Below, piece by piece: positions 7,101-64,000 of a stretch of 64,000 bases of DNA (position 1 is its first letter; the number at the start of each line of letters is the position of its first letter). The stretch comes from Takakia lepidozioides (lineage: Eukaryota; Plantae; Bryophyta). The position numbers and the translations under genes were made by a program. The stretch is taken from contig CM060733.1 of NCBI GenBank assembly GCA_030704615.1, forward strand, positions 18,042,001 to 18,106,000, written 5' to 3'. The notes below the pieces were generated by a model, which saw nothing but the letters and a program-made list of their open reading frames with translations, ran no database searches and was not told where the DNA came from.

Positions 7101-8897
7101 CTTCATCTCAGGCAGGCAGGGACCAGGTTGAGGGCCAAAAAATGCAGCTCTATCACTCACAAAGTCAGAGCCTGCGTTGGTTTCCCACGTCTTCGCCTTG
7201 AACATCTCCACAAAATCGGCCGAGATTTCCTCATCACACTCCATATCAACCACCTCGTTTTCCCAGTCTGCTTCGTCAGCAAAGTCGCCCATGTACCCAT
7301 CGTCACCCTCAAAATCCTCGTCCATGTCGGAGGAGGCCTCATCGTGGCCCAAAACAGGATTAGAAGACCCCTCACCAAAAGGAACCAGTGCACCAGTGTT
7401 GGGATGCATGTCCCCCAAAGCAGCCCGACCGACGGCAAGCATGCTCCCAGCACCCATAGGCCCGCCAACACATCCCACAACACCCGAATTCACCACTTCC
7501 TAATTTTTTTTCCTCACCACACCTTTGGGAGGTGTTGTCACACTTGCAGGAACCGACCTCTTTGCACGAGCCAACTCCTTCAGACGCCTGACTATCGGCA
7601 TCGGGCCAGACATCATCTCTCAAAACAGAATTCACAGCATCACTGAACCCCTCCTTATCACCTTCCTTTATTCTCTCTCTCCAACCAAGAACTAGAGCCA
7701 CCTGACGTCTAAACAGAAAGCGAAAATTGTGAGGACGAGGGTGGCAAGGCCAACGATTGGCGAACGGCGGTGGAGGCAAACTACAGAGGAAAGCATGAGA
7801 CAGACACCCCAATATTATCTTGCACTGCTCGGGAGTGCAGTGCTGCTCCTCAAGCGCCCACTCCCTTATAACCTCCGCGACAGCTGCAAGCTCGGGTGGG
7901 GGCGACGGTGGCTCAGGCACAAGAGCGTCCTTCCTCTTTGGTGCCATACGAATCCGTGAGACCGACAGAGATCACAGGAAATGAATGCAAGCCCTCACGA
8001 TGAATCAATGCAGATGGCTCATCTTCCCCAAGCACAGGAAGGAAGGATGTACCTCGGCGAATTTCGCAAACTCTCCAAAACCAGCTGCAAAATGAAACCC
8101 CAACACACCACGCTCCCCTGCAACCATCCCCTACCACACAAAACACAGAGCCCAAATGCATAAAAGCATTTCACAAAACGACATGCAAGAAAAAATGACA
8201 ACTTGCATTACAATGAAAATTCAGCAGGGCACAAGAATCTAAACGCCAAACACTCAGCCCTAATAGCTGCGTAAATGCAATCACACCCCGAGCTCTAATG
8301 TCTAGAACACACAACATGAAACGGAACAGCTCCCGCCGCTTCGAGCCTGGGAGAGGTAAGTCGCTATGACCCGAAAATGAAGCCCAGAAATACACCCCTA
8401 CGAAGCGAATGCGGGCGATCCACGGAAGATCAAGCAGAACATGCACACAAAAACGCCAAGGAAATGCGAGAGGGGCCACGATTTGCAAGCTCCAGGAACC
8501 TAGACTCTATGCGCGCGAAGAGAGAGTTCGTTCCACGCTGCCGCCACCCATCACTGGCCACAGGGTGGCATTTCATGTCCGCACGGGCGGACATGCCAAC
8601 CCTGTATGCACCCGATCGCCGGCATTGGGCCACCGATGCCCATTTTGCCTGCCACGTGGCTAGATCAAAGCCCGTGGAGGGCCAGAAACCATTGGATTTT
8701 GGGTGCTCATCATCACTTCAAAAAATCCCGACGGCGCAGGATTTGTCCAATTAGGGTGCAATAAATTCTGTCCGACGCAGAATCTCAAGGGCTACAACTT
8801 TTATTCAGGGCCCATTTTCATCCAGATTCATCCAAGGGGCCCACTGATGGTCGAAATATCCAATCGACCCGAATCAGGTCGACTCGTCCATTAGGGG
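4187..8897 (-). mobile_element. piggyBac-superfamily DNA transposon, full length (4711 bp)
   Basis: TTAA at 4183-4186 and 8898-8901. TIRs CCCCTAACGGACGAG and CTCGTCCATTAGGGG match at 14/15 positions. Internal DDD transposase on the minus strand. Confidence 0.93.
5663..7947 (-). pseudogene. piggyBac transposase (DDE_Tnp_1_7 plus C-terminal Cys-rich domain), disrupted
   Basis: Motifs across ORFs: ELRAWIGVCVFMG..YW, MTRDRYEAILRCLH, DKLGKLR, VTVDEVMIRYKG..YMPKKPCK*GIKVW, VTDNYFT, WATGTVRVNRKGLP, WWDKKGVFLLSS, YMRGVDVQDQ..KKWW, DITLVNAYIL, CVMC..YYCPGC..LCLGRCWNEAH. One in-frame TAG (6587) and frameshifts near 7505, 7080, 6450 and 5980. Confidence 0.9.
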
Positions 8898-18600: not shown

Positions 18601-19291
18601 ATAGCCAGGCCACACATGACGGATGCAAAGCCTCAACGCAGGACCTTGGCGCGCAGCGGTGCCAGGCCGTTCCTACACGCCCAGCGGGACGTCCGCTCGA
18701 CGTAGTTTTCTAACGCAAGAGAACCTGGGTTATGCAGATGGAAGTGCGTTCCTTGAAAGCTGCAACCTGTAGTAGGGCGTCACCAATGTGGGAAGGCTGC
18801 ATGAGAGCAAGAAAAGGAGGAAATAACGTTGTACGTCACCCTTTGCCTTAGGAACCAATACCTGCTGTTGAAACTGGGTCCCACCAAGGAGCCACCATGG
18901 AAAGATGGGGCTTGTGTGGCCGCTCCCCTTGCAACCGACGTTGGGAAGACGCCGTTCTTCATAGCCAGGCCACACATACCATTTGCCTCCGTTGGCACCC
19001 AATTTCAACAGCAGGGATTGGTTGCGAGAATCCAACAAGGCAAAGGGTGACATCAGTCCTGCCTTATTTCCTCCTTTTCTTGCTCTCATGGCGCCTTCCC
19101 ACATTGGTGGCGCCCTAACTACAGGTTGCGGAACGCACTTCCATCTGCATAACGCAGGTTCTCCTGCGTTAGAAAACTACGTCGAGCGGACACCGGGCGT
19201 TTAGGAACGGGCTGACACCGCTACGCGCCAAGGTCCTAAGTTATGGGAACTGCACTGAGGCTTTGCATCCGTCATGTGTTGGCCTGGGTAT
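18601..19291. repeat. Long imperfect inverted repeat (foldback, ~300-bp arms)
   Basis: ACATGACGGATGCAAAGCCTCA...GTCCGCTCGACGTAGTTTTCTAACGCA...TTATGCAGATGGAAGTGCGTTCC...CATGAGAGCAAGAAAAGGAGGAAATAA recur in reverse complement at ~18990-19291. Confidence 0.88.
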
Positions 19292-21831: not shown

Positions 21832-21913
21832 AAGCGAACGTACCACATTGCCTGATATATCAGTGACTTATTATTGAGGATTGACAGACCTCCTCGGAAA
21901 GACCTGGAAGATC

Positions 21914-23384
21914 ATGTTGAAGGAATTATCGGAGTTTCATGGAGTTCACGTTGTCGTCTTCCCTTTCCCGATGCAAGGCCACATTGCCCCAGCCGTTCAA
22001 TTTTCGAAGTGCTTGGTGAGATATGGCGTCCCTGTTACCTTCGTCATCATGACCCCCAATCTGGCTGGCGCGGGACAAAATTTGTTTGAAGATCCAGGAT
22101 TCCAATCACGCAACATGATCCGCTTGGTAGCTCTTGATATCCCTGAGGGATTATATGGTCGGGACTTCAGTATGGTAACGTTCAAAGACCTAAAAGTGAT
22201 CACAATGAACATGAACGGAGCATTTGAAGATCTCCTAGGGTCATTGGTGGAGTTTGCTGAAGCTTACGATCCCGGGCCTCCTACTTGCATCATTTCTGAT
22301 ATCTTTTTGGGTTGGACTCAGGTATCTTCCCGACCGAGCGAGTTCTGACATTGTTTCTCTTAGAATGTTCAGATTAGGTGGTCCGTCCGGATTCTGATAT
22401 CAATATTTATGATAGTCTTGAGCTCTCTTCTCCAACGATCCATGAGTGTGCAGGATATAGGTAGTCAACAGGATATAGCTCTCTCTCTCTCTCATAACAC
22501 CGTTCGTTGATGAAATTGCATGGGGTACAAGATGTAGCCAACAAGTTTCAAATACCCAGATATTGTCTGTTTCCATCGCCTGCGAGTGTTCTTTCATTAC
22601 CGTGTCACATTCCCAGTTTGGAAGCGCAGGGCCTAATCCCTGTTAAGGTCTGATGCGAAGCCCTTGATCATTCCTGGTTTCCCTCTACTTAGGTGTGGCG
22701 ATCTGTCGAATACTTTTCGGGAGACTGGAACACAAGCAGACAAAGGCATGTATGTATCATTCAGAGCGTGTTCTGGAAGCTGCTGGAGTGCTCGTGAATA
22801 GTGTTTATGAATTGGAATCTGGAGCTATTGAAGGCTTACGGAACAGATTTTGTAGCGAGGCAAAGTTGACCCAGGTGGATTGGCATCTATACACCTCAGA
22901 GACTGCGCAAGTTCCACACATCCGGGAACTCCTCCCCGCAGGTTTCATGGAAAGAACAAAGGATAGGGGTCTAGTTTTCTCAACCTGGGCGCCACAGCTC
23001 CATATATTGGGCCACCCTGCTGTTGGAGCTTTCCTAACCCACTGTGGATGGAATTCCGCACTCGAAAGCATCGTAATGACTGTGCCAATGATAGCATGGC
23101 CAATGCTCGCCGACCAGTTGATGAATGTGCGACTCATCGTGGATGTTCTCAAGATTGGAGTTGGCGTCCACAAGCAAGGATATGGAGCAGACGCATTGGT
23201 TGCAAAAGAGGAGATTGAGAGGGCGATCAGGCTCTTGATGCAAGACGAGGATGCACAAGCGTGCAGGAAGAAGGTAACGGAGGTGAGCACAACGGTGAAA
23301 AGAGCTGTGGCCGTCGGATCTTCCCACACCAATTTGCGCCTGTTTCTAAATTCCCTCCTATCCCCTAGTTGTACAAAACACTAA
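21914..23384 (+). pseudogene. Family-1 UDP-glycosyltransferase, probably a pseudogene
   Basis: N-terminal HVVVFPFPMQGHI and CIISDIFLGWTQ followed by a GT donor at 22322. Intact PSPG box WAPQLHILGHPAVGAFLTHCGWNSALE...WPMLADQ. However, the acceptor before DVANKFQIP reads AA rather than AG, there are frameshifts near 22648 and 22740, and the GPL..WLD..SVxYVSFGS segment is absent. Confidence 0.82.
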
Positions 23385-24202: not shown

Positions 24203-27200
24203 CTATTGATGGCCTTGACCCCCAGTGTGGAGTGCAGCAGCCTGATGGAGAAGATTAGACACAATGTCCAGGTGCTCCTTGCAACCTATTAGCTGAAGCC
24301 TACCCTCCTCAAAACTCTTTTCAAACATGTCGGCTGCTGCTGGGACTGACCTCACATACGTGCGTTTCAGTGCAGCAATGCGACTCCCTGCTTCCTTGAT
24401 TCGGGCATAGGGGATCCGGCCAGATAATACTTCTCTGACTAGAGTATCTATGACCGCGATTTGGCGTTCCCGTGTATGGGAGACCAGCAACATATCTATG
24501 CCAGCAATGACTGCTTGTACAGCCGCTTCATCCACAGTGAAGTTCTTGACTATGGCTCCCATTTCCAAGCAATCGGTCAATACAACTCCTTCAAAGAGAA
24601 GGGCATTTCGTAGGTGATCTATTGCCCCCTTGCTCAGGCTTGCAGGCCTCCCGTTCTGCTCCAATGGTCCACTGAAACAGGGTACATCAAGATGGCCCAC
24701 CATGATTGCCGCAACATCTGCTTCCACAGATTTGGCAAATGGGCATAGCTCAATATTTCTCAGTCGTTCCAGCGCGTAAGGTAGACAAGGGAGGTCAACA
24801 TGGCTGTCACAAACACTGTCCCCATGACCGGGATAATGCTTTGCACACGCTGCAATTCCTTCCTGCTGTATACCTCTGATGAAAGCATACCTACACCAAC
24901 CGGTCGATTCAACAACCCCTCAATCCCCAATCATTGCATAAAATCAAGCCTCTTGGACAACTCCAAAAGAGGTCAAACATAGACTCAGGCAGTAAATGGA
25001 GTCCAGCCACCTCTTATGAGCTCATAAGAACTCGGTCAAGTAACTCAAGATCAACAGCAGTAAATCTAGAGCTATGTCCAAGGAGGTTTTACGTATCACG
25101 TACCCAAACTCAGACACTAAGGAAGGAGAGCTCCCAAATGATCGTTTGCCAATTACAGGGTTTTGGGGATTGGTATCTACATCCACAACTGGTGCCAGAT
25201 CCATGTCAATATTCACAGCCCGGAGCTCTTTCCCTATTATACTCGCAATTGCAGCTGCAGCCTGGGTGTCGCCAGTGTTCCCCACTAATCTGGCAGGTGG
25301 AATCACTGTAAAAGGAGGTCCCAGCCTTTGGACTAAACCCCCTTCTTGGTCAACCATGATTGCCAAAGGTCGGTTGCCCGCTGCTCTCTTCAGATTAGCA
25401 CATAGATGTGCTACCTGCAAAGAGTGATGCTGGACCAATCAGAGTTTGTTGATTCAGCCATTGGAGCAACAACACTGAAACCCAAGTATAGGAAGCCAGA
25501 TGTGCACAGTGGAAAGGAAAAGTGGCTGCGCCATAGAGAAATACAGAGTATGCCAGAATCCTCATTCTCTTTTGCCTTCAATTGCTCTCCAACTCTGATC
25601 AAGACAACCCTGGCCCAGACAGATCGACCCACTTTTATTACCATAGTGGTCTGTAGCTTTGAGGTAAGAGATAAGTAATCATAAGACATGTTTACCATAG
25701 CCTTGGGGCCAGAGACCCTGTACCCAGTTTGGGCAGAATAAAAGGGAACAGACACTACCTTTGTGACGGCTCACTCCAGTAGCGGGACTTACCGTGATAT
25801 AAAACAATCTGCTCAGGCCTTCCAGATTTCCTCTAAAAAACCCTTCACACAAGCATGAATCTGCTGTGTGTGATCTGCCCCGCAGTTAGACCTCAACAGT
25901 GCCAGGGTTTTAGGCTCAACCTCGAGTTAAGACGAGAGAATATCCTCGTAAGACGTCGTTTTCCATAGCCTTGTGGCCATAGAACACGCCCAGTTTGAAA
26001 CAAGAGGGAACAGACACTACCTTTAATAGGGGCTCACTCCGGTAGTGGGACTTACCTTGGCATAAAAGTTCCGGCTTTCCATATTTCCTCTAGAAAGTCC
26101 TTCACACAAGCATCAATCTGCTATGTGTGAACTACCCAGCAAGTAGACCCCAGGGCTTTAGACTCAGCCTCGAGATTTTTTAAGTTGGTGAACAGAGGTG
26201 CAGAAACAATGTTCTTGAAGTTCCTGAAGAGGATCACTCTCTGGAGAGAATAGCCCGGACGATGTATTAGAAAATGGTTTTTGTCTTCAGGCTGCCTAAA
26301 CATTGGGCAATCACAATCTTTTTCCCTCTGCATCTGTTTATTGTTCAAATGTAGGCTCCCTGCCCTGAGTTCAAATTTCACGTTAGTGCCGAGGGCAGGG
26401 GGGCCCTTCATCATTAAGGTCCCCGCCCATGTCACAGACTGGAAACAAGTTCAGGGAAGTTTTATGCCTAACTTCATTGAGAGAGAGCGAAAGAGAGAGT
26501 TAACAGAGGTGGAGACAGTGACCTGCTCAGGGTCTTCAATGTTTCTGGCGGAAAGAATCACTCCACCCGCTCCTACAACATTTCGAAAAAAAACCACGAT
26601 TAGTCTGTCTAGCATTACCTAGGTACACAATCTGAATATTCAACACTTTAGGAAGAATGGATAAGAAAACCACACACAAAGGCAAATTAACCGAACAAAT
26701 GACAAATCAATTAGTCGAGGGCACCCAGGCAATCTATGTTGAGTGTTGTTATGGAGATTTTGTCCACTGTGGTTATGAAAACCGTCTGCCCCTATCTTTC
26801 TCTCTCCCCCTCTTTCTGCGCAAGGTTATTTTGCATGCCACACCTGAGTAGCTCCTTGGTATTGCTATCCTCGATTCTTGCATTTGGTTCCATATTGTCC
26901 TACATGTGTCCCTTGGGCCCTTTTGGCCTCTCTCTCTCTCTCTCTCTCCCTCTCAAACATCCACAGACAATGCCTATAACTTGCCATAGCTTCCCTTTTT
27001 GGCCAAGAAAATTGCCAGCCATATGAATTTGTCTGGTCTTGTTTGCTATGGCCGTACATCTCATAACCGTCCTTTCTTTCTTTCTTCTCCATCCAAATTG
27101 CCGAATCTGTTGAAATTTGAGGGTCTAGTGACCAGTTTTCAAGAGTATATCAAAAAAGACCACTCTACAAACATAGCCTTCAGAGGAGGATAAAACTGCA

Positions 27201-28408: not shown

Positions 28409-29863
28409 TCAAAACCTTTCTGATGGGAACCCATCAACATTCTTCAAGTACCATTGTTTTGTACTTAAGCTCCGACTCGTCAAGTACATAATCACAAATG
28501 CCAGTTGGCAGACTCCCAAAACCGTTTGGCTGATCAAGGCCACGCCCAGATAATCAACCATTTCAAAAAAGTAATGAGGGCACACCATATACTCGAACAG
28601 ACCGCCATGCGGCACTGCATATTTGCGGCTGCCATCCTTGCGTAAGTTAGCCAGGACGTAGTGGTGGTACAGATTTCCAAAGATCCCCACCAAGACCACC
28701 GGTATACCCAACCACACCAAGTCGACTGATGGCGGAGGAAGATCCGAGGAGAGTACTTGTGCATACAAGAGATTGCATGCATTCAAAGTATAGCTCGACG
28801 ATATTATCAAAAAAGTCTGGGCGGCACTCCGTGTACCCGAATAGCGATGCAGGAACAGCACCTGCTCCAATTACCAAGTAGCTTTAGCATTTTAATTGCT
28901 TCGCAGTTTTCAAATGCCTGAGGAATTAGGCTAATTTTACTTCATCTGGAAACTTAGAACTGGACCAGTGATTGGTAGGAGTCATCCCCACAGATCGCAA
29001 AGAATCATTCATTCTTATTTATTGAGTTATAGTGTGACTTGTGCGATTTCCCATGAATGAAAGTCCAAATGGTCAACATACTCTCTGCAAGGCCTGCGAG
29101 ACACCTAATGTTGGTCTTATTTTGGAAAGGGAGTCAAGAATCCGGGAGACTGAGAGACTAGTGATGTACATTTGTTTCTGCAAGGGTGCCAAAGGGTTGC
29201 TGTGGTGTGAAATATGGCCCCCCTGTCAACTTTATTCACATCTTCTGAGAATCCAGCAGGTGAAAAGAGAGGAGATACTCACAAATTATAAGGTCTAAGA
29301 TCTAATCTGCTTTCATCAAGACAGAAGTAGGAAATATAAAAAGGACAGCAAAGACGCCCATACATCTGTAACAAGCTCGTAACCAGCAGAGAGAGCTTTG
29401 TTCGAATATGCATACAGGTAGATAAATTCACAAGATTTTCCCTCTCCTTAAGCCGCATACTAGGATAGAGGGACATCACCTCAAAAACCCGTTTACTGAA
29501 GTGGAGTGAGAGAGCCGCTGCAACGTACAGAACACGAGGGGCGGAATCGAATGAAGACTGTTGTAAAAAGGATGCAACACCAGTGAGTCCAACTGTCTCC
29601 AACAGTGAATGCAGGGGGAAGAATCCAAGTGTTTGTGCCAAAAATAAGGTAGAAACTAAAGCGGCTGGTAAGTAGATAACTAGCATTCCTGTCTTGCTCG
29701 TCAGTTGGAACTTCTTTTGATCAGCAACAGCAAACTTTGAATACTGGAGGCCCGTTCCTGTCATTTCGCTCCGGAACCCCAAAATCCCGGAAACCACGTT
29801 TATAGTTCCCATAAGAACGATGTAAGAGCTGCCAGGGTTCTCGTACAAGCCCATACTCGCCAT
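28409..29863 (-). CDS. 3-oxo-5-alpha-steroid 4-dehydrogenase / enoyl-reductase-like membrane protein; exons 29863-29480 and 28861-28409
   Basis: LQYSKF, LTSKTGMLVIYLPA, LHFSKRVFE|VLFLHRYS (GT-AG intron), GNLYHHYVLANLR..YAVPHGGLFEYMVCPHYFFE (Steroid_dh motif). The C-terminus is possibly frameshifted. Confidence 0.87.
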
Positions 29864-30237
29864 TATGCGTGGCCTGTGTGGGGTGTTTATGGGATTCACT
29901 CTTACTGGAGCCCTGCAAATTTGGATGACCCCGCTGTGCTGTGAACCAAACTTTGGAGATCTCAGTAGCGGGACTGAAGCTGGAAGAAGGAACCAGGCCC
30001 CGAAAGAGAGCCGATTAAGCCCCGAGTTCAAAATACCCATAGCTTTGTGAACAGGAGGAGACAAAGACTTGGTCCATCATTGTAACAGATGGATAACTCC
30101 TATGTGGATCAGTCGAGTATAGGGTGGGTCCCAGTTCTTGTCCTGTTGCTCCTCTAGCAGGCTCCCTTGTCATGTCCTCCCCTACCCTGGATTCACTTGA
30201 GCATTTTAGAATGCATTTAATTGTTGTGTAGCAATGA

Positions 30238-30465
30238 ATAGTCTGCCGGTAAGGCATGGTAGCTGTGAATTTGATTCTTGTGAGATTGCTATGTATTAGG
30301 TAACGTCCATTGGTCGCCACGTCACCTGAGATAATCTGCTCGCGGCTCCCGCCCTCTTGGGCAGATTATCTCAGGTGACGTGGCGACCAATGGACGTTAC
30401 CTAATACATAGCAATCTAAGTACAAGAATCAAATTCACGGCTACCACGCCTTACCAGCAGACTAT
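30238..30465. repeat. Near-perfect hairpin (~100-bp arms, 21-nt loop)
   Basis: AGATTGCTATGTATTAGGTAACGTCCATTGGTCGCCACGTCACCTGAGATAATCTGC (ending at 30339) is exactly complemented from 30361. The outer arms carry a few mismatches. Confidence 0.92.
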
Positions 30466-46500: not shown

Positions 46501-46565
46501 CAAAGGGGAATCCGGCCCCCTGCAACGGCGTGCACAAACTGCATTGAAGAGGCTCCCCAACAAAA

Positions 46566-49500
46566 ATGAGTTCCCCTCGCCCATGCGGAGGACTTCCAAT
46601 TAATCACCCCTATAGACAGAACACCCGATATGACAGGTTGTGGGAAAGAGAAGTGGCACGCGCCCGAGCCCTTGGGCTTTCAAGGATGCCATGCCCATGT
46701 GAACGTTGTTTGGGCACTACAAGTAGATCTGAGGACGGTGTGCGCACACATCTCCTTCACCACAAAAGACATGAAGCATTTCGGGTGTGGATTGGAGATG
46801 GACCTGCAGACGAAGACGATGAGGAGTGGGCACAATTGGACAATGCACACCCCCGGGGGAGCCATACAGACAGGCCAGACGAGGACTATGTCATGGGCGC
46901 AGGACATGAACCAGGCATGGACGGAGGGGTGGAGATTACTCGAATGTTACATGAAGCATTCCACATCATGGACGATGCTGAAGAGGGGGACGGCGCTGCG
47001 ACAACTGGGGATGGTGATGACGCAGGAAATGAAGGCATTCACGTGGGGGAAGGCGTGGAAGGAGGTGGAGATGGAGATGAGAATTCAGCACACATGACAC
47101 TAGAAGAAGCATGTGTGCCACTGTACGAGGGATGCAAATCCACAAAGCTTGCTGCCACCATGCTGTTGATGAACCTGTGCACAACCCACGGTGTCTCAGA
47201 CCATTTTGTGGACGAGTTGTTCTCTTTGCTTCGGCTGAACTTGCTTCCACAACCAAATGAAATGCCAAAAAGCTGTCACATGGCCAACAAAATGATTGGG
47301 AAGTTCGGCCTCAACTACGTGAAAATACATGCATGTCCAAAAGGACATGTACTTTTCAGAAGAGAGTACAAGGACACTATGGAGTGCCCTAAATGCGGTG
47401 CAGCCCGATACCAGGTTACAACAGCCAGCCAAGGTGTTGAGGCACTTTCCCCTTATCCCCCGTCTATTACGAATGTACAAATGTAAGACCATTAGTGAGC
47501 TCATGACTTGGCATTCCAGGAATGCCTCAAACGATGGTTTGGTAAGGCATGTCCCAGATTCCCTTGCACGGAAGCATATAGATGCAACTTGGCCCGATTT
47601 CGCCGAGGACCCACGCAATGTGCGATTGGCTGTACGGATGGAGTAAACCCATACGGATCAAAGAGCTGCACATGGTCCACATGGCCCGTGCAGTTGGTGG
47701 CATACAACATGCCACCATGGTTGACAACAAAGAAATTCTTTGTCATGTTGTCTCTCTTGATTCCAGGCAAGGAGTCCGTGACAAATGCAAACATAGATGT
47801 GTATTTGCAACCATTGATTGAAGAGCTACAAGAACTATGGATTAGAGTTGAAGCTTATGACATTTTGAAACCAGTAGGGCAACGGAGTTTCACCCTCCGT
47901 GCCATACTCATGTGGTCAATCCACGATTTCCCCGCATATGGCCTTGTTGCGGGTTGCAAGACGAAGGGCTATAAAGGGTGCCCCATTTGTGGGCCCTATG
48001 TGGATTCACGGCACTCAAAGCCATTGGGGAAGACAATATACATGGGGCATCGACGTTACCTTGCAAGAAACCACCCCTACCGACGAGCAGGAAGGCACTT
48101 CAATGGATGTGTTGAAAAGAGAATGGCACCAAATGTTGTGACACCGGAGGAGACATTGCAATTTGCAAAGGAGAAAGAGGCGTTCATGGAGATTGGAGGG
48201 AGAGAAGGAAGTAGTGCGGATCCAGCCATGGAGCACGGGGTGAAGCGCCGGACAATCCTTTGGGATTTGCCATACTGGAAGGTGCATGAATCCCCCCCCC
48301 CCCCCATTCACTCACTTTCTTTCACATTGTGCTTCCTGGAATTACCTTTACTGTCAGGAGTCCTTCCACCAACTCCTAAGTCAGTGTAACTACTATGCAG
48401 TAGATGTTGAAGTCGTACACCTCACTGTGGAGAGGATCGTGCAGTTGTTGAAAGCAGAATTTAGTAACATGGACAACTTCTGTCACATATTCTACTATTT
48501 TTGCCCATAGAACTTGGTCTCATGGGAGGACATCTGGCATTTCAGAACCTCTTGCAGCGGTACCTCCTGGACCCCATGCATTGTGAGAAGAACTTCTGCG
48601 AGAACATTCTGAAGGCGATCTTTGGGGAGAAGGATACGATAAACGTATGAAATGACATGGAGATAGAAGGGATACGGTCACATCTGTGGCTAAGGCCTGA
48701 TCCAAATAGACCTCGCAAAGTGTTCATGCCAGCAACATCATACGTCCTGACCAAATCAGAGCAAGAGCATTTTTTGAAAACATTGGGAGCCATGAAAGTG
48801 CCAACCGGATTCTCGGGTGCTTTCCAAAAGCATGCCATAAACAAGAAATGGTCGGGGATGAAGTCACATGATCTACACGTGATGATGCAGCAGATTTTGC
48901 CAGTGTGCATTCGGGGTACGATGGCGCCCAAGTCCTCGAACAGCCATAATGCGTGTAAGTCGAGTGTTTAGGAAGATTTGTGCGAAGGTGTGGGATCCGA
49001 GGGACATTACATCGTTGCATGAGGATGTGGCTATGATCCTATGTTTGCTGGAGAAAGAATTCCCTCCATCATTCTTTGACGTCATGACGCACTTGCTAGT
49101 GCATCTTGTAGAGGAGCTGCATGTGTGTGGGCCCGTAGCCAGCCGTTGGATGTACCCCATGGAGAGGTACATGAAGGATTTGAAGGGGTATGTACGCAAC
49201 ATGGCACGGCCAGAGGGGAGTATGGCGGAGGGCTACATCCGTGACGAAGCTCTGGGCTTCATGACAGAGTATATGTCTTCATTTGATGCAACACAACGAC
49301 GGGTATGGGACGAGAACGAGGAAGAAGGAGTTGTAGGCGAGGTCCTAGAAGGTGGTGGAACAAAGCGTGCCATGAGCCCGCGCCTTCGGGATGTGGCACA
49401 TGATTATGTGCTGAACAACACAACAACCATGACACCATGGAGATAGTGGGTGTAAACTTACATCCCTCCTGTGCTATTCTTAATGGTCTTTGTATGCTAG

Positions 49501-49986
49501 AATTACATATATATTGTCACAAGTCATTCCGGCCACTATGCAATTCTATTCCGTTGTTCTTGGGTAAAAGCCAATATGGTAGGAGAGAATGCCACCATGA
49601 AACAGGATGAGTACGGGTTCCTCCTTGCTGATTTCAGAAAAATGCTACCACAAGATGAAGAGCCATTCATCTTCCCATCGCAAGTTGAGCAAGTTTTCTT
49701 TTCAGATGACACCCATGCGCCGGGATGGAAGGTGGTTCTTTACAAGGACCCCCGGGCCAAACGAGTCGTGGCCGACGTCCATGATCTGGACCTAGGGGAG
49801 AATGCCGACCATGAGGGTCTGAGGGAACCACAAAATCTACCAGATACGGCCGAACCAGTCTCTTTGGAAGGAGCAGTTACTTTTAATGAGGAAGACATTC
49901 CAGGGTTGGTAATTACCGCAAGGCAAATTGCAGATGTGGGTAGTGAAGGGGAAGATTCTTTGGATACAGATAGTGAGCCCAGCTGA
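46566..49986 (+). pseudogene. CACTA TnpD/Tnp2 transposase (transposase-associated, Transposase_21, DUF4218 and DUF4216-type regions), disrupted
   Basis: CPCERC; KIHACPKGHVLF..CPKCG; KVLRHFPLIPRL; FAEDPRNVRL..TDGVNPY..STWPV..YNMPPW; DVYLQPLIEEL; SIHDFPAYG; LDPMHCEKN; GMKSHDLH; FPPSFFDVMTHL..WMYPMERYM..PEGSMAEGY; EPFIFPSQVEQVFF. Several frameshifts and a TGA near 48648. Confidence 0.93.
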
Positions 49987-55060: not shown

Positions 55061-55587
55061 GAACATTGCAGACAAGTCCAATGGGGATGTTGCGGTGGAT
55101 CAGTATACCGCTATCGGGGATGGCTCGAGTGCTTGCATCACGGAAAAGAGATGCCTGACGCTGCACAAGCCATCGCCATCGCCACAGCCATACACCCGAG
55201 CTCGAGAGTCGTCGCTGGAGCAAAGCAGCTCACTAAGAGAGCAAGCCTGTGGTGGTGTGCCTGTAACCACAAATGAAACCTGGGAACAGTTTTTAATGGT
55301 GAGAACGTTTTTGTGCTGAATTTGTTTTTATAAAAAAAAGCCGTTTTGAGCTAATTTCAAGATTTAGAGCCTAATTGGTCATATCTCTGGCAAATGAACT
55401 CCGTTTGACACAGTTTTTGAGGGGATAGCTGTAGAAAGGGGAAATCTACCTATCTAGTTTTAGTTTTTTGGACTCTGCTAAAAATCTATGGAATTTTTTG
55501 GTGTATGTGCCATGAAAGATCCACAATTCTGTTTCTAGAACCTGTTGTGGTCTACATGAGAGATAAATCTGGGGATGGACTCCTTGT

Positions 55588-56220
55588 ATGGCTGGGGGAA
55601 ATGAGGACGTAATTGAAGGGCAGGTCTCTTCTCTTAGCCTGTGCACCCAAGGGGACAAGATTTATGTTTATCAAGGAACTCAGACTGATTTGAGTGGAGA
55701 ACAGTTGGACGAGTTGATTGCATACTGGGAGTCAGGCATTAGCAGTAGACAACAAACTGCTGTAGTTGGCGTTGAGGGCCTCAATATCGCTTTGGACAGT
55801 CAGAACTCTGTTGGAGCCAGCAGTTCTGCAGCTGTAAGTGAAATACCAAAGTGGGTGAAAGCTAGGCTTGGAACACAGCCAAAGACAGCCCCGGGGACCA
55901 AGGTGTTCAGCCACAAGGCCGTGGTGTACTGGAGCAGAGGAGCAGGAGCTACACAAGTTTGTGCAATCAGACATGGTTGTAGCCGGACACGCTCTACACG
56001 AGGCAACCACAAGCGGAGGTTCATTAGCAATGAAAAGTTTGTGCTGCTTGAAGGAGATGCAGTCATTCGCAATGAGGACACCCGCAACCGTCTCAAAGCT
56101 TTCGAGTTGAGAGACTGTCAGACCCTACCTTTATTTTCTTTAGTGTTCAGTGAGCGGGAGATAGGGGAGTATTGCTTTGTCTCTACCTGGCAGAAAGAGG
56201 AGGAGGGTTGGTTAGAGTGA
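55588..56220 (+). CDS. Unknown 210-aa ORF upstream of the Gypsy gag, possibly an element accessory ORF
   Basis: ATG-initiated ORF on the same strand as gag, ending ~640 bp before it. Protein-like sequence continues past the TGA. No recognised domain. Confidence 0.4.
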   Translation: MAGGNEDVIEGQVSSLSLCTQGDKIYVYQGTQTDLSGEQLDELIAYWESGISSRQQTAVVGVEGLNIALDSQNSVGASSSAAVSEIPKWVKARLGTQPKTAPGTKVFSHKAVVYWSRGAGATQVCAIRHGCSRTRSTRGNHKRRFISNEKFVLLEGDAVIRNEDTRNRLKAFELRDCQTLPLFSLVFSEREIGEYCFVSTWQKEEEGWLE

Positions 56221-56857
56221 GCTACTGTAGCTTGGGACAAGGTTAGTGGCAGGTTTCTGGACATAGATATACCTCCTACACCTTACCATCATGCAGAGCG
56301 AGGCACTTTGAGAGAAGTCTGGCAGTTGATAGCATAGATCAGGATTAGATCTTGCTTGGTCGGGCCTCTATTCTTCCCCTCCCTCTTGTTACTATTTCCA
56401 TTACTTTGTACATGTAGTTGCCAAAGCCTCTCTTGGTGGAGGCCAGTCAGTCGGGGGTTTTGGGCTGGGATATTCTGCAGGATCAGCACTGCAGATGGAT
56501 TTTGGTGTGGGGGTGTTGATGTTTTGATTTCTTGTGTTTGGATCCCCCCCAACACCTGCATGCTTGACTGTGCGCCATGTTGGTTTTGTGTGGGCGCTTG
56601 CTTTCATAGGGATTAGGCCGGATTTGATCACCGGTCAATCCTAGAGTATGTTGTCGGTGGTGAGGCTGGAGTGATGACCAACAAGACCACCAGTGTTTCT
56701 TCTATGGTGAGACTGGGTTGATGACCAGCCAACCATAGGAGTTCTTGTGGTGGATGCAGGTGCAAGTGCCCTGAGCCACTGGGATATGACCCTTAAACTG
56801 CAACAGGTGCCCACCCGTGTCACTATTAGTATTAGTACTAGAGCCTTATAGTGTCAC

Positions 56858-59800
56858 GTGGGGGAGGTGCACATTGTGAGTGTCATCACGGAGTTACCCA
56901 AGGGTTTTGAGGGGAGTACCGCAATAGGCAGTAATAGTGAGAGTGGGTTCACAAGACGAGGTATTCGGTTCAGACCACCTTCACCTCCACCCTCAACTAC
57001 TGCAGAGTCAAACACAGACTCGGAGGCTTCATCAACAGGTGTGCAGTTTCATTCGCCATTGTTGTGGGACGACATGGAGGAGATGTATGGAGCTACCAAG
57101 GGGCCTCGTAGGTACTCTGGAGCTGTGGGCACAATTGAGCTGGATGACTTTATCCAGGAGTTTGACAGCTGGTGTGATTTGCAGCAGATGCGCAATCCAC
57201 AGCTGTTCACCCCATTCATGGCGTGGAAGGGACTGTTCTAGCATTTGGAAGGCCCGCCTATGGACGATTACCACGAGTTCAGGCGAGGACATGAAGCAGA
57301 GATTGAGGAGTGGAGGATGTATTGGTCACCTGACTACGTCTCCATTACTCAAGGCACGACGCGACCAGTAGTTGCATCAGCACCAATATCTTAACCCTGC
57401 TAGCACTAGTAGTGGAACAAGTAGTGCCGGTACTTCTGCATGTGGTACCAGTTCAAAAGGTGCTACTACTCCTCCTACCACGACTACAACACATGTGCCT
57501 AGATTCAACCCGGTGGTGGAGTTCTTCCAGGAGTTGCGGATGAACTACCAAGATGTACGGACAGAGAAGCTGCGAAGTTTGCAAGACTTCCAGCGCAAAC
57601 CCAGTGAGAGCCTGCGAGAGGCGTACACTCGTATGAGGCGCTTGATAAGTGTGACCCAAGGGGTTACTGAAGCTCAGGCAATCTTGTTCTGGTATGGAAT
57701 TTTGGACAAGGAGCTCAGGAGAAGGGTGCGGGATGCAACCCTGTTACAAGCAGCCCAATCCACATTAGCAGATGTGTTTCTGCTGGCTGAGCAGATTGAG
57801 TTCAACATGGTGGAGGAGCGAGTTGTTACCATTGGATTTGGCAAAGACATGCTTGCACGAGGTGCAACTGCCAGCCCACAGGCACAAGGGACTGCCCAAC
57901 AGCGTGGTCAGGGGGGCAAGGTTTCCCAACCCAAATTCCATGGAGCTTACAGGGGACCTCAGGTGCAGAGGCCAGTAGCATCTTTTGCAAGCCAACAACA
58001 ACTAGGGGTGATATGTTGGACATGTGGAGGACCCCATGTCAAGAGAGATTGCCCAGAGAGTGGCAAAAGGCCGGTACAAGCACAGCTTGCACAGTTGCAG
58101 TATGGGCATGGAGATGCCTAGTGTTATGACTTGCATCCTGAGTTGCGCCCAGGCCAGTTCCAAGGGAACAATGGTGGCCGGGGGCGAGGTGGACCAGCCT
58201 AGAGAGGACGAGGTGGCCGGGCACGAGGTGCAGGCCAAGGGCAAGCTCAACATGGCCAAAGACGCGGAGGTCAGGGTGTTGACCAAGGCATGGCCAACCA
58301 GCTTCAGCAGCTAGAGCAGAGGCTTGTTGCCATGGCTACATCTCAGGTGGTACCGGCTCCCGGGCAGGATGGTCCACCTCCTGCTCCTAAGGGAGGAGAT
58401 ATGGGAGGAATGGGATTCATGTGCGGAGCAGCACTACCACTAGAGCAGGTGGAGTCTGCTGCAGCCGTGACTCGAGGAGCATCACGAGTTCCTAAGCCAC
58501 GAGGTGCAGAGGTGGAATTGGATCCACAGCGTGAGGAGGCAAGCCGTCAGGCGAGGCTTCCTCAGTCATTCACATTGGTGGAGACAGTGTCAAGGCCATC
58601 CATGGCACCTAGTTCTCGCCCAACTGTTACCGAGGCGGAGGTTACTATGCCATTGGGGAGAGCTACACGTGCATCACTGACACCTGCTACCAAGGCTAGT
58701 GCAGCCGGTGTGTTATTGGGGGCAGCCACCTCTGTGTGTCAAGCCCCACTGTTTTTGGCAACCATGATTGCGACGCCAGGGGTAAGACCAGCTGCAGTGT
58801 TCAGACTAGCAGCAACACTCTGTGAGAGTGGGGAGGTCACTTCATCTTCTGCGGAGTTACTGGAACGTGTAGTGGCAGAGGGATCCTCGGATTTGAGGGT
58901 CAAGACTGCCACGGCTGCGCCATGGCAAGCTGCAGCTGCCAGGTTGACGGAGCTGCCAGCTAGGCCAGCCTTTGAGCGCGCCATGGTGACACCTGGAGTT
59001 ATCTTGTTAGACAACCAGGATGGCATTTTCTCTTTGAGTGGACCGGCAGGCAAGAAGTACCGGCCACTGCGGGTCTTGTTGGACTCGGGAGCTCAGGCAC
59101 TGATGTTGGGCAGAGCTGCTATTGTAGGTTTGGGCCTCATGGAGGCAGATATGGAGCCTTGTCTTTTCCAGATACAGACATCTCTGGGAGGATCAGAGCA
59201 GGCTCGGGGCATGACACGGCGTGAGTTGGCCATTAGACTGCAGCAGGATCATCCTATAGATGGCTCAGTGATGCGAGCCAAGGTCATTGTGACAGACGCG
59301 GTCTCTTATGATGTCCTCGTTGGTGGAACAGTGTTATATCCCATGGGCTTCACCCTGGACTTTTGGGAGGAGTCAGCATCCTACAGGCCTGGATGGCAGT
59401 CAGGGGATGGTCGTCATGCACAACTCCCTGTGACATTCATTGGGGGTATTGCGGCTGCCCAGCGGGGCAAGATGCCAACACTAGCCGCCTTTATAGCTGT
59501 AGTTAGTTGGCCTGGAGAGTTGCTAGAAGGCAATGCCCATGCAGAGGATGTGCCACCTTCAGCAGAGTAGGATGACATGCATGGTACGGTGGAGTTGCCT
59601 GCCATGGTTGCTCACACTCCATTGTGGGGTACGAGCAAGGATTTGTAGTAGGCTGCTGATGGACGGGTGCAACAAGCCTGGGTAGAGGCCTTCGTACCGT
59701 CAGGAGAAGAGGAGAGTGCGGTGATTGCACCAGGACCACCTCAGTTGTCGCCATTGGATACCACACCTCTTGTGTGGCAGTGCCCGAATGAAGGCATATG

Positions 59801-61451
59801 CCTTCTGGACTTGTTTGGCGGGATCAGCACTAGATTGGCTGCAGTGCTTCAGGCAGGTGTACGAATTTGACGTTACCTGTATGTAGAGAGGGATAAGACT
59901 GCACGACGCGTCTCACTATGCCATGTTGCTTAGTTGGTACAACAGTACCCTGATTTGTTGCCAGTGTCTGCAGTTCGTGGATACCAACAAGCCTTGCCAG
60001 CAGACATTTCGTTGCTGGGGGCGCAGGATTTGGAGCAGGTTGGCTCCATTGATCTGGTAGTGGCAGGTTGGCCCTGCCAAGGGCATTCATCAGCCGGGCA
60101 TGGCAATGGATTGCGAGACTCGAGGACGGGTCTGTTTTGGGAGATGGTGCGGGTTTTGCGCCACTTGCAGCTTCATCAAGCTGTATCTCCAACATACATC
60201 TTGGAAAATGTGCCACTGATGGGTGATTCTCGGGCCAAGGTGATGGCCAGTGTGCATCAAGTCCGGTCGTGGCTTGGGTCGGCAGAGTTGTTGGATGCAC
60301 CTGTAGTGGGGTCACGAGCTCATCGTCCATGGCTATGGTGGACTAACTTGATGCCACCCGCACTGCTCAAGCGTGCATTTGATGGGGTGCAGCGGCCAAC
60401 ACACCTCACAGTGGATAGCATTTTGGACACAGGGAGGCAGTCTCAATGTGTGAGACACGATGACCGTTCGCCTTTGGTAGTGGTCAACAGGGTGGGTCAA
60501 CCACGAGCAACATTACCTACACTGCTCAGCTTCCCAGGATCCCATGCTTTTTGGGATGGTGGACCTGGCCTCTTGTGGGATAGTCAGTTGCAACAATTAG
60601 TGGAGCCCAATGCTGACGAGCGCGAGCGGGCGATGGATTTTACCACTGGTACCACGGCGGTGCCATCTCTTTCTGAGGCATCACGTCGTCAGGTGTTGGG
60701 GCAAGCAATGGATCTCAATTGCTTGACCTGGATTATCAGCTTGGCTATGGCTGAGCAGTGCAGAGTGCGGAGTACACTTCCCTTCATGGTCTCCCTGCCT
60801 ACCGAGACGGTACAGGCAGCGAGTGGGGGCGAGCAGGTGAGGACCACGAGGTGCAGGCCGCATCCATGGCATACGTGGGAGGTGCTTGAGGTTCAGAATG
60901 AGTTGGCAGCCAAGGCGGCGGTGATGGATCAGGTTGGGGATTTTTCTCGGGTTGAGGAGGTCCTCAAGGATGGGATGATGGGGCAGGGTGAGACATTGTC
61001 ACTGATAGAGGAGGCAGTGGTCACTGCTCAAGAGGTTGCAGCATAGCAACCACGGGACGCGTCTTCTACCTCTAAGCCTGCTGGACTCAAGGTTGGAGTC
61101 ACGGAGGACAACTGGGAGCCTGATGTTGGACCTATAGTCACCGGAGGAGAGAGATGACGTATACAGCGGTTCTTGAGGGCTTACATGAACTGCTTTGCCT
61201 TCAGTTTGAAGGACTTATGAGCATTGAAGGGTCAAGAGATTCGCATTGAATTGGCTACTGACACGCCAATCTTTCGGAGACCCTATAGATAAAGTGACAT
61301 GGAGATGTCCTTGATTCAGATGAGAACTCAGGACCTTTGGGAGGCTGGTTTGGTGGAGCTATCTGGGGGAGAGTATGCTTCAGCCATAGTGATGCCAGCC
61401 AAGAAGGATGTCTATGGCAATTGGACGGAGAGACGTATGTGCGGTGATTAC
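56858..61451 (+). mobile_element. Ty3/Gypsy retrotransposon gag-pol remnant: Gag, zinc knuckle, aspartic protease, DNA methyltransferase, RT N-terminus
   Basis: Gag motifs PRRYSG..LDDFIQEFDSWC and FQRKPSESLREAYTRM. Zinc knuckle CWTCGGPHVKRDC. Protease VLLDSGA (59082)..DVLVG. RT start FAFSLKDL..IRIELATDTPIFRRPYR..AGLVE..EYASAIVMPAKKD..RRMCGDY. Single frame from ~57390 to 61451 with in-frame stops. LTRs were not confidently located. Confidence 0.88.
59790..60740 (+). other. C5-cytosine DNA methyltransferase domain (DNMT3/Dcm-like) within the retrotransposon polyprotein
   Basis: Motif I LLDLFGGIS (59802), II YVERD, III ADI, IV DLVVAGWPCQGHS (Cys codon at 60075), V TGLFWE, VI YILENV (60204), VIII AHRPWLWWTN, IX ERERAMDF, X RRQVLGQAMD, all in canonical order. 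Confidence 0.92.
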
Positions 61452-61826
61452 ATTAATTAGGGTTAATTGACAACGAGTTGAATTAAAAATCAAGATCAAA
61501 AGCTTTTTATTTCTAATGGTGCAAAAACATGTCGTCAAACACATAATTTCGTCATCCAACAATGTTTTAAGTTAATGTTCAATCTTCTTAGGAGGTCAAA
61601 CCTCAGGCCAAAGAGTTGGATTTTAATCATTCGGGCACGAGCGACGCTACCGCGTGAGGGGTGAACGGTGAGCGTACGCTCACGCGGGGCTGACGTGGCG
61701 TGAGTGTTAGAGGGCTACTTGGGACTTAGACGCTTTTACGAGATCTGTGGGGTACCCTTAATTTTTACACAGACTGAGACCAACAGGAGCCTTAGGGGTG
61801 ACAGCAACAGGCTTTAGGGGGGGAGA

Positions 61827-62045
61827 TACACAGCCCCTCACAGTCCAACACAGTCCGTCACAGCCCGTCACAGACCAACACAGCCCGTCACAGTCCGACA
61901 CAGCCGACACAGCCAACACAGTCAGACACAGCCGTCACAGCCAGTCACAGCCCGATATAGCTAGCTTCGCACAGCCCGACACAGCCCGATACAGCCAGTC
62001 ACAGCCCGCCACAGCCTGATACAGCCAGTCACAGCTCAGCACAGC
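61827..62045. repeat. Low-complexity CACAGCC/CACAGTC tandem array
   Basis: About 20 variants of (T)CACAG(C/T)CC(G/A) units. Confidence 0.85.
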
Positions 62046-62048
62046 TGG

Positions 62049-62771
62049 TGTCGCGGCCCTTTGCCTTGAGGGCAGGGGGTCGGGACACATGAGGGGCTGC
62101 CCCTGTGGTGGGGGCAGCGGCGACGATAGGTATGGGGGGCTGAAGCACCCTTGAGTGCCCAAGGCACTCAAGGAGGCGAAGGCGCTCACTAGGTGGAGCC
62201 CCGCACACCGGGTTGCGGTGGAGGTGGCTCCACAAGGGGTGGTGGTAGCTTAGTGGGACTTAGTGGGGGTGGCATAGGACTCACCATGGGGTGGAGACCT
62301 CGAGGTGGGAGTCGTGGGGAGTCTTGGGACTCATCATGGTCCATTGGGGCCGCGGTGAGTGGGCCAAGACTCACCGCGACTCACCACCGGGAGTCGAGGG
62401 TTTTCGTGGTGGTTCGCCATAAAATGGCATGGCTGGTTATGAAACCCCGCGGACAGCTACAGAAGTATATATAGGGAGTAGTAACCCCGAGAACGGTGCA
62501 AGCCCGTTGGTGACCAAAAACTAGTGAGTAATCGTGCGAGCCGGAAAGCGACCAAAGAGTGGGGAGCTGTTCCGGACTGCCATCTACCAAAGGGAATTCT
62601 CCTAGTCCCAAATAGGTGGAGGGTTTTAGAGGAAGCGAATGGGGACCGTTATGTCCCGGTGAGTAGCCGAAACTCCAAGTTGGCCCGGCGGCCAGGTTGG
62701 GAGTCAGGCGCGCGCATCAAAGCGGTTAACTATGACTTGAAGGGGAGTTTACCGAAGTGAGGTGCGCGACA
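62049..62771 (+). mobile_element. 5' LTR (723 bp) of a second, apparently younger LTR retrotransposon
   Basis: Inverted termini TGTCGCG...CGCGACA, TATA-like TATATATAG near 62466, followed after TT by a PBS. Confidence 0.85.
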
Positions 62772-62773
62772 TT

Positions 62774-62785
62774 TGGTATCAGAGC
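62774..62785 (+). promoter_or_regulatory. Primer binding site, tRNA-iMet
   Basis: TGGTATCAGAGC, two bases after the LTR end. Confidence 0.93.
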
Positions 62786-62826
62786 CTAGAGTTCAGTACG
62801 CGATCGTCCTTGGGATCGGCCTCATC

Positions 62827-64000
62827 ATGGGGTCGGGCAAGCCGAAGCGAAAGCGGAACGGCCCAAAAGATGATGATCCCGGTGAGCCCGATGGGGGCGA
62901 CGTGTCACCGAGGCGGCCGTTTGAGGAAGCGATGAATGTTTCCGAAAACGAGGCCGCTCAAGAGCGGGAGGAATCCGAGGAGTCGGAGCCCGAGGAATCC
63001 TCGAGAGCTCCGACAAACCAAGAGATGCCTCCCATGCCAGCAGCCTTTTGGGAAGGGTTGTTGGCGCAGTTTGGCGGGGCGTTGAAAGACGTGTTGAAGG
63101 CGGCTAATGCCACTTCCACTAAGGCAAAGTTTAAGGTGAAGCCTAAGGAACCCGGCACCTTTGAGGGCGTTCGAAACCGGAAGGCACTCAACACCTGGCT
63201 CCTGGAGCTAGAGCAGTACTTCCGGGCGGCCAAGTTGAGTGACGAGGATCGGGTGGAAGTGGCTCCCACCTATTTGAGGGGCTATGCTCAACAATGGTGG
63301 CAGAAACGCCTTCACGACCGAGGCCCAAGCCCGGAAACCTTGAACTGGAGTGGGTTCAAGGAATTGATGAAGAGACAGTTTGTGCCCCTCAACGCATCCT
63401 GGCTTGCCCGGGACAAGATGAGGAATTTGAAGCAAACAGATGACATTCGGGGGTATGTCCAGGCTTTCAATGTGCTGTTGCTCGAAGTCGCGGACATGGC
63501 GGAACCAGAAATGGTCTTCAACTTTGTGGCGGGACTGGCCCCATGGGCTAGGCGGAAGTTGGAGGAGAAGCCACCCAAGACTTTGAACGAGGCAATTGAG
63601 AGAGCTGAATGTTTCTCGGATGTCCCTAGGGGTGAGAGACAAGGCCGTACGGAGCTGAACCACAAGAAGACCCCGCGGGAAGGTGACTCCTCCCGACCGG
63701 AAAAGAAGTGGGATAGGCCACGCGGCGAAAATGGCACGTGGAAATCGAAGGGAGGGCCTTCACACGTCAAGGCGGCACCCGGTGCTTCGAAAGGAAAAGC
63801 GGGTGGAGCGGCTTATGGCGGACAGAAGGCGACCTTTGATGGAGTGTGTTTCAATTGCGGGGAGCCCGGGCACATGGCCAAGAAGTGCACGAAGCCCCGG
63901 CAATTGAACATGACTCGGGCGACCACGGAGCTGTCGGAAGATACCATCAGTCGTTTGGTGGAAGCGGTAGTCGCCAGGACTTGCAAGGTAGGCAACTATT
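62827..64000 (+). CDS. gag: Ty3/Gypsy Gag(-Pol), open to the window end
   Basis: Uninterrupted frame MGSGKPK...KPKEPGTFEG..LNTWLLELEQYF..YLRGYAQQWW..WSGFKELMKRQF..LKQTDDIRGYVQAF..CFNCGEPGHMAKKC (CCHC knuckle). Confidence 0.9.
   Translation, partial: MGSGKPKRKRNGPKDDDPGEPDGGDVSPRRPFEEAMNVSENEAAQEREESEESEPEESSRAPTNQEMPPMPAAFWEGLLAQFGGALKDVLKAANATSTKAKFKVKPKEPGTFEGVRNRKALNTWLLELEQYFRAAKLSDEDRVEVAPTYLRGYAQQWWQKRLHDRGPSPETLNWSGFKELMKRQFVPLNASWLARDKMRNLKQTDDIRGYVQAFNVLLLEVADMAEPEMVFNFVAGLAPWARRKLEEKPPKTLNEAIERAECFSDVPRGERQGRTELNHKKTPREGDSSRPEKKWDRPRGENGTWKSKGGPSHVKAAPGASKGKAGGAAYGGQKATFDGVCFNCGEPGHMAKKCTKPRQLNMTRATTELSEDTISRLVEAVVARTCKVGNY

Follow-up and report, generated by a model that had tools for sequence, protein, structure and literature searches.

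A Ty3/Gypsy retrotransposon carrying a DNA methyltransferase (DNMT) domain of the DNMT3 type lies in a 64,000-nucleotide (nt) stretch of the genome of the bryophyte Takakia lepidozioides (assembly GCA_030704615.1, contig CM060733.1, positions 18,042,001 to 18,106,000 of the forward strand), hereafter the window, whose coordinates are used throughout. Judged by its sequence, this copy is decayed, truncated at the 3′ end, and makes nothing itself. The organization of the family is seen in its relatives: Gag, protease (PR), and DNMT occupy a first open reading frame (ORF1), which ends at a conserved stop codon (61044 in the window), and reverse transcriptase (RT), RNase H (RH), and an integrase (INT) that ends in a PHD finger follow in the second (ORF2). 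The stop is a family feature and not decay, and from its context it is likely to be a programmed readthrough site. The reading that we consider probable is that of a bryophyte Ty3/Gypsy family with Gag-PR-DNMT placed before an occasionally read-through UAG, in which the DNMT would be packaged at the level of the capsid and would methylate the element's own cDNA before integration.

A first-pass annotation, made from the letters alone, had placed a DNMT3-type domain between the protease and RT of a Ty3/Gypsy element, and this domain order is upheld. Its single polyprotein, broken only by decay stops, gives way to two parts, Gag-PR-DNMT and RT-RH-INT-PHD, divided by a conserved stop with a readthrough-type context. 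What is likely new here is that the Gypsy-DNMT3 kind of element extends to land plants and there has a likely readthrough site behind the enzyme.

The stop codon between methyltransferase and reverse transcriptase

A metagenome scan yielded 342 relatives, the best 80 of which were retained for locus-level work. With labels coined in the present analysis, 38 of these 80 belong to subfamily A (Sphagnum-like, as its RT start matches a Sphagnum fallax protein), 2 to B, and 32 to C; 8 are unassigned. In subfamily A, a stop is found at the junction of DNMT and RT in all 30 loci that cover it (20 TAG, 10 TAA; the junction lies outside the remaining 8 of the 38). They represent 23 distinct copies with a mean identity of 90.5%, and the junction is the only site among 1565 codons with more than one-third stops, the next being 9/29 and 7/22. 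Locus L029 has a single stop between positions 973 and 8227 (~2400 codons), which splits a 1369-residue Gag-PR-DNMT from a 1047-residue RT-RH-INT-PHD. The same stop is the sole one in ~2200 codons of L096, the DNA of which is 73% identical to that of L029. Within the Takakia family, no variant is listed at 61042–61052 across four sequencing runs, including the deepest bin of the main run, and 2 of 1721 contig pieces diverge just upstream of the stop. Stops 61155 and 61218 are private to the window copy, since 98% and >99% of the depth read otherwise; stop 61290 lies too close to the edge of the compared stretch for a judgment from sibling contigs. Many homologous proteins end soon after the DNMT, and the Marchantia ORF1 models P0004, P0005, P0193, P0194, P0200, and P0201, together with two shorter ones, end 97 residues past motif X (read from proteins only).

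That the stop might be an old inactivating mutation in non-autonomous copies, as the common decay of CAG to TAG in these genomes and the lack of the stop in subfamily C could suggest, is hard to reconcile with its identical position and motif in lineages ~47–49% identical in the DNMT and with an ORF2 that is intact and constrained behind it. A one-off nested insertion of the DNMT is likewise at odds with the even cover by sibling contigs over the DNMT and its flanks and with DNMT and RT trees that are largely concordant. Both possibilities are largely refuted and very improbable.

The bases that follow the stop fit UAG-CAR-YYA, which signals type I readthrough (PMC3542737, PMC5382211). The six bases are CAACCA in the window, CAGTTA in L029 and L031, CAATCA in L096 (all with a fit of 6/6), and CAACCC in 22 of the 23 subfamily A copies (5/6), and contexts of this type have a background here of 0.3–0.5% of codon positions. 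The residues encoded after the stop differ (QP, QL, QS), and the pattern stays within CAR-YY(A). The distance from motif X to the RT motif takes values of 672, 738, and 786 nt, and the stop is always in frame with RT. RNA folding 3′ of the stop gave no conserved structure (z of +0.25, −0.55, −2.73, and −0.90), and none is required for type I. From this context, ribosomal readthrough at a few percent is likely. In tobamoviruses, benyviruses, and pomoviruses, an in-frame UAG-CAR-YYA sets the ratio of the upstream or structural protein to the polymerase (PMC3542737). Leaky gag-pol stops also occur in long terminal repeat (LTR) elements, where the recoding is usually between gag and pol; here it would instead lie behind the protease and a whole captured enzyme (PMC3441728).

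Several observations weigh against this interpretation. The CAA CCC of subfamily A departs from the motif by one base. The same subfamily has an in-frame ATG 9 nt past the stop and, ahead of the stop, a U-rich stretch (22/23 copies), which leaves room for reinitiation or splicing in this subfamily. Four eukaryotic gene models (P0007, P0008, P0013, P0027) join DNMT to RT across the stop. Finally, subfamily C (31 loci), P0042 of Klebsormidium nitens, and P0213 lack a stop at the junction, so supply of the enzyme at the level of Gag is not required by all DNMT-bearing elements.

Splicing or reinitiation might thus bypass the stop in place of readthrough, with the DNMT still made with Gag, and RT-IN coming from another mRNA or start. 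Ogre elements have an intron between protease and RT, and the TAG itself is a potential splice acceptor. The ATG of subfamily A is lacking in the window family, L029, and L096, and the predicted joining points differ among the three of the four gene models whose junctions were read. The presence of a single stop, always in the RT frame despite the differing linkers, and the match of the bases 3′ of it to CAR-YYA also argue for readthrough, and we regard splicing or reinitiation as unlikely. In subfamily C, Gag and Pol seemed at first to be separated by a frameshift, which came from indels found only in the copy taken as reference.

The methyltransferase domain, its spread, and its descent

The domain of the window copy matches PF00145 with an E of 1.2e-11 (45 bits, for a cut-off of 22). 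The C5-cytosine methyltransferase motifs previously proposed, including PCQ and ENV, were all located (Table 1), and their order is canonical, that is, non-permuted and unlike that of DRM. Among the PDB sequence matches of this domain, 25 of 31 are DNMT3A/B/C, the remaining 6 being HhaI-type. The predicted structure of the intact DNMT domain of L029 (pLDDT, i.e., predicted local distance difference test, of 91.9) best matches DNMT3B/3A structures (E ~1e-18), in agreement with the DNMT3-type resemblance noted in the first pass. By its motifs I–X, PC, ENV, and predicted fold, the domain is assigned to the DNMT3 family of C5 methyltransferases.

The PCQ, ENV, and motif VIII arginines are kept across proteins ~47–49% identical in the DNMT domain. 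Identity between the window copy and subfamily A is 66% in the DNMT, 54% in the protease, and 42–46% in the linkers. The comparison of L029 with L031, a single pair, gives a dN/dS of 0.13 for the DNMT (bootstrap 0.07–0.22), 0.084 for RT after the stop (0.03–0.18), and 0.60 for the linker; L031 breaks inside RT, and between subfamilies dN/dS is saturated. Coding constraint is present on both sides of the stop, and in this pair the DNMT is under purifying selection and not neutral.

The domain is found family-wide. In Takakia's own sequencing run, 86,192 contig pieces fall on a 7.8-kb stretch (part of the neighboring element included), and their cover is even across Gag, protease, DNMT, and RT (depth gives no copy number). 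The 49 long homologues include 15 under the name Marchantia polymorpha (57–72% identity), 1 under S. fallax, and 1 under K. nitens. The 120 listed of 162 shorter homologues include Calypogeia fissa, Riccia sorocarpa, M. paleacea, and two further Sphagnum species, and no vascular-plant name. The intact relative L029 shows RVT_1, then RNase H, Integrase_H2C2, and finally rve, which is the Gypsy order with a DDE integrase. Uninterrupted Gag-PR-DNMT gene models exist in M. polymorpha (Mp4g09160, Mp8g17980, Mp5g06330, Mp5g06860, MpVg00370, MpVg00540).

Only short and distant DNMT matches were found in 15 viral-contig loci and in 4 of 5 prokaryote-genome loci, and hence no viral or bacterial donor emerged. 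The fifth locus, L096, is a plant-type element on a contig of a cyanobacterial metagenome-assembled genome (MAG), and P0051 and P0071 are plant- or alga-type DNMT retroelements in bacterial MAG records. These are probably binning contamination and can pass as bacterial DNA methyltransferases.

The DNMT tree was made with 36 chosen rows, without L096, and the RT-RH tree with 25 rows and no mixture model, the window RT being too short to enter. Both were rooted at the midpoint, contain no host DNMT3, and came with warnings of long branches; the RT-RH tree contains no non-DNMT Gypsy outgroup. Within the DNMT tree, one can identify a clade of 14 (99/99) with the window, Marchantia, Calypogeia, Sphagnum, subfamilies A and B, and four unnamed ORF1 proteins, which includes all five rows with the stop read in DNA. 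The RT-RH tree separates 12 DNMT-before-RT rows, including K. nitens, Marchantia, and subfamilies A–C, from 13 RT-RH-DNMT-INT rows at 100/99, and the suggested kinship to charophyte Gypsy elements is borne out by the position of K. nitens. The two trees largely agree and are compatible with one old capture and one relocation of the DNMT, which they do not prove.

The closest described system is KnitGypsy-Dnmt3, a Gypsy-Dnmt3 element reported for K. nitens only, in a study that presents the domain as acquired inside Pol by that lineage (de Mendoza et al. 2018, PMC5890265). Shared features are the Gypsy domains, a coding region that holds a non-permuted DNMT3-like domain, purifying selection, and, in the relatives of the window copy, DIRS-like repeats (PMC5890265). 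K. nitens KFL_009030040, with the order PR-DNMT-RT-RH-INT, has a DNMT with 44% identity and groups within the same clade of the RT-RH tree. The bryophyte elements differ in their liverwort and moss hosts, in having the DNMT in ORF1 with Gag and a readthrough-type stop before RT, and in an integrase ending in a PHD finger. The DNMT is continuous with RT in the Pol ORF of K. nitens and subfamily C, not in the window's clade.

SymbioDIRS-Dnmt3, SymbioLINE-Dnmt, DAM-LTRs, and EpiLTRs are other retrotransposons with a DNA methyltransferase proposed to mark their own cDNA (PMC5890265; bioRxiv 10.64898/2026.05.21.726589). In contrast with the present family, they are tyrosine recombinase, LINE, adenine methylase, or DNMT4-sister types, and the portions of these sources that were available report no readthrough arrangement for them. 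Chlorophyte elements with the order RT-RH-DNMT-INT-PHD (P0043 of Hariotina reticulata; L055, L067, L080) have a homologous DNMT and an integrase with PHD; their DNMT comes after RNase H, L080 is one open frame of 2733 codons, and they form the sister clade in both trees. The same architecture is present in P0029, P0037, P0038, P0041, P0048, and P0051, and no description of it was found in the literature searched.

That literature, which also took in PMC6453930, PMC6317226, PMC12885004, PMC9516144, and bioRxiv 10.1101/2022.06.16.496473, comprised sources outside subscription papers and repeat databases, and its available text does not report the bryophyte copies, the junction stop, or the palindrome described below. 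PMC12344493 and bioRxiv 10.64898/2026.05.21.726589 write of "streptophytes" in the parts at hand, so bryophyte sequences may already be included in their trees or supplements. According to one review (PMC6338049), land plants "such as tracheophytes" lack elements of this kind, and the review bases a hypothesis of loss on this point.

Repeat layout and a proposed cycle

The paired LTRs anticipated at first are replaced in the long relatives L037, L047, L076, and L077 by repeats in the order A-coding-B-A-B, a permutation of BA-coding-BA, and two identical flanking LTRs were not found in them. The relatives begin with TG and end with CA, and a purine tract precedes B. At the inner B|A junction, L007, L021, L037, L061, L062, and L096 have the palindrome GACA-GC-TGTC, and other loci show transition variants of it. 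If a two-LTR circle (BA-internal-BA) is cut open at this palindrome and loses the two central bases, the product is exactly A-internal-B-A-B, and we lean slightly toward such a circle, opened by the integrase at GACA-GC-TGTC, as the origin of the layout. This would be a simple account of unexplained DIRS-like ends in an integrase-bearing element. The window copy retains the 5′ end only, so that split repeats are not visible there. An identity as a DIRS or Ngaro tyrosine-recombinase element was rejected on the rve integrase and the 4-bp target duplications of the relatives.

The proposed cycle would run as follows. Most ribosomes would halt at the UAG and yield Gag-PR-DNMT in bulk, and the few passing it would append RT-RH-INT-PHD. 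The particle would thereby be loaded with methyltransferase at the level of the capsid protein, a single protease cut would presumably free the enzyme, and the enzyme, placed beside the nascent cDNA, would methylate it ahead of integration. A pre-methylated new copy would look like host chromatin or arrive already damped. That the cDNA is the substrate has, in our judgment, an even chance of being right.

Other points weigh against the reading. The dN/dS rests on one pair. The 4-bp target duplication is perfect in 3 of 5 two-ended loci, carries a mismatch in one, and is absent from one. And the DNMT domain of the K. nitens element did not methylate yeast DNA, a result called inconclusive in the source (PMC5890265).

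This last result would also fit a true readthrough whose abundant DNMT enters the nucleus and targets host chromatin or rival elements, or serves as a non-catalytic DNA-binding coat, as would the PHD chromatin reader on the integrase and an amount of enzyme, at capsid level, presumably beyond the need of one cDNA. Such other roles seem rather unlikely in view of the catalytic PCQ, ENV, and motif VIII arginines kept at the divergence given above, and of the related SymbioDIRS-Dnmt3 domains, which methylate CG de novo (PMC5890265). The ratio of observed to expected CpG is 0.43 in the element, 0.86 in the neighboring Gypsy gag, 0.57 in a CACTA piece, and 0.34–0.59 in six relatives; low CpG does not distinguish self-methylation from host methylation.

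A wider scenario is offered tentatively, as possible at best. An ancient green-lineage clade would have captured a DNMT3 once, reached land plants, and shifted its recoding point behind the enzyme in bryophytes, with each subunit of the capsid then bringing along a methyltransferase and the particle becoming a methylation chamber in which the two-LTR circle is finished and methylated before the integrase opens it at the palindrome. If true, the epigenetic state of a new copy would already be set by the element's own enzyme when it enters the genome. The benefit to a transposon of bringing along the very enzyme that usually silences it has been a question since 2018, in part because the known hosts are difficult to manipulate. 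The uninterrupted gene models of M. polymorpha make it testable in a genetic model, and the conserved stop, which predicts the stoichiometry of the enzyme, is a concrete handle on function. Bryophyte "hypothetical proteins" of DNMT elements may also confound DNMT counts and the interpretation of methylomes.

The window copy and its neighborhood

A single reading frame runs through 57372–61451, from Gag and protease over a DNMT3-like C5-cytosine methyltransferase into the first part of RT, and carries 11 point stops (58119, 58200, 59568, 59646, 59649, 59868, 59931, 61044, 61155, 61218, 61290). The first-pass annotation had correctly put the ORFs at 57372, 58290, 59667, and 59934 in one frame; the Gag N-terminus lies upstream in another frame, so a frameshift is present as well (Table 1). 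The start it gave, 57372, moves to near 55506–55510, as sibling-contig cover jumps directly after 55505. There the copy reads TGCCATG, where relatives read TGTCATG, and a second copy of repeat A was not found within the window. In the Pfam search PF00145 was matched as foreseen, and the protease and RVT_1 went undetected in the window copy; both were placed by homology to relatives, in which Asp_protease_2 matches are mostly below the curated cut-off. The N-terminal part of Gag is supported by an alignment of 57074–57343 with Marchantia P0004 and by the N-terminus of P0223. The early verdict that this copy is dead is sustained because stops fall inside the DNMT and conserved residues are lost in motifs I and VIII.

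Table 1. Parts of the decayed element in the window
Feature	Position	Strand	Evidence and remarks
5′ repeat A and leader	55506..56870	+	outer boundary 55506–55510; inner boundary not fixed
Gag N-terminal part, other frame	56945..57390	+	stop at 57239; frameshift near 57375–57392
Gag capsid-like domain	57501..57821	+	70% identity to Sphagnum-like subfamily; weak Retrotrans_gag matches in relatives
Zinc-knuckle-like Cys/His motif, nucleocapsid	58014..58052	+	sequence; Cys/His columns conserved in alignment
Aspartic protease	58941..59441	+	DSG motif 59076–59096; homology
DNMT3-like C5-cytosine methyltransferase domain (assigned)	59766..60740	+	PF00145; broken by stops 59868, 59931
Motif I	59796..59831		
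PCQ	60069..60083		
ENV	60201..60215		
AHRxxLWW	60318..60341		
ERERAM	60603..60635		
Motif X	60696..60716		
Predicted type I readthrough site (UAG-CAR-YYA), ORF1/ORF2	61044..61052	+	conserved in-frame UAG, then CAA CCA
ORF2 start, RT N-terminal part	61047..61451	+	64% identity to Sphagnum-like subfamily; decay stops 61155, 61218, 61290

The copy breaks off at 61451, where sibling contigs depart from the window sequence; a 313-nt contig bridges this break without differences. Past it come ~250 unrelated bases and then a second Gypsy element. The intervening bases (61452–61704), between the truncated RT and the second LTR, start AT-rich and are repetitive in the Takakia run. The second Ty3/Gypsy element (61705–64000, +) looks younger, with an LTR at ~61705–62771 that contains 10-nt tandem repeats, a primer-binding site at 62774, and an open gag that leaves the window (Retrotrans_gag, Ty3_capsid, and zf-CCHC matches). 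In the 5′ region of the DNMT element, an open frame of 217 codons (55567–56217, +) has no Pfam match and no counterpart in relatives, and may be due to chance.

Elsewhere in the window, the frames at 46548–49983 (+) and 5666–7102 (−) are presumably transposase-like, CACTA-like and piggyBac-like by their motifs. Host genes at 21878–23381 (+), 24206–25438 (−), and 28412–30076 (−) include what we take from motifs to be UDP-glycosyltransferase-like and steroid-reductase-like genes, and among them is a GH3 beta-hexosaminidase-like gene (PF00933 relatives). In a host-gene search, Sphagnum (64%) and Diphasiastrum (54%) were the only land plants named among 20 matches, a result that by itself makes a non-seed land plant likely. 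Long inverted repeats, MITE-like (miniature inverted-repeat transposable element) or hairpin-like, are found at 30238–30465 and 18635–19242, with a perfect 57-nt pair at 30283–30417.

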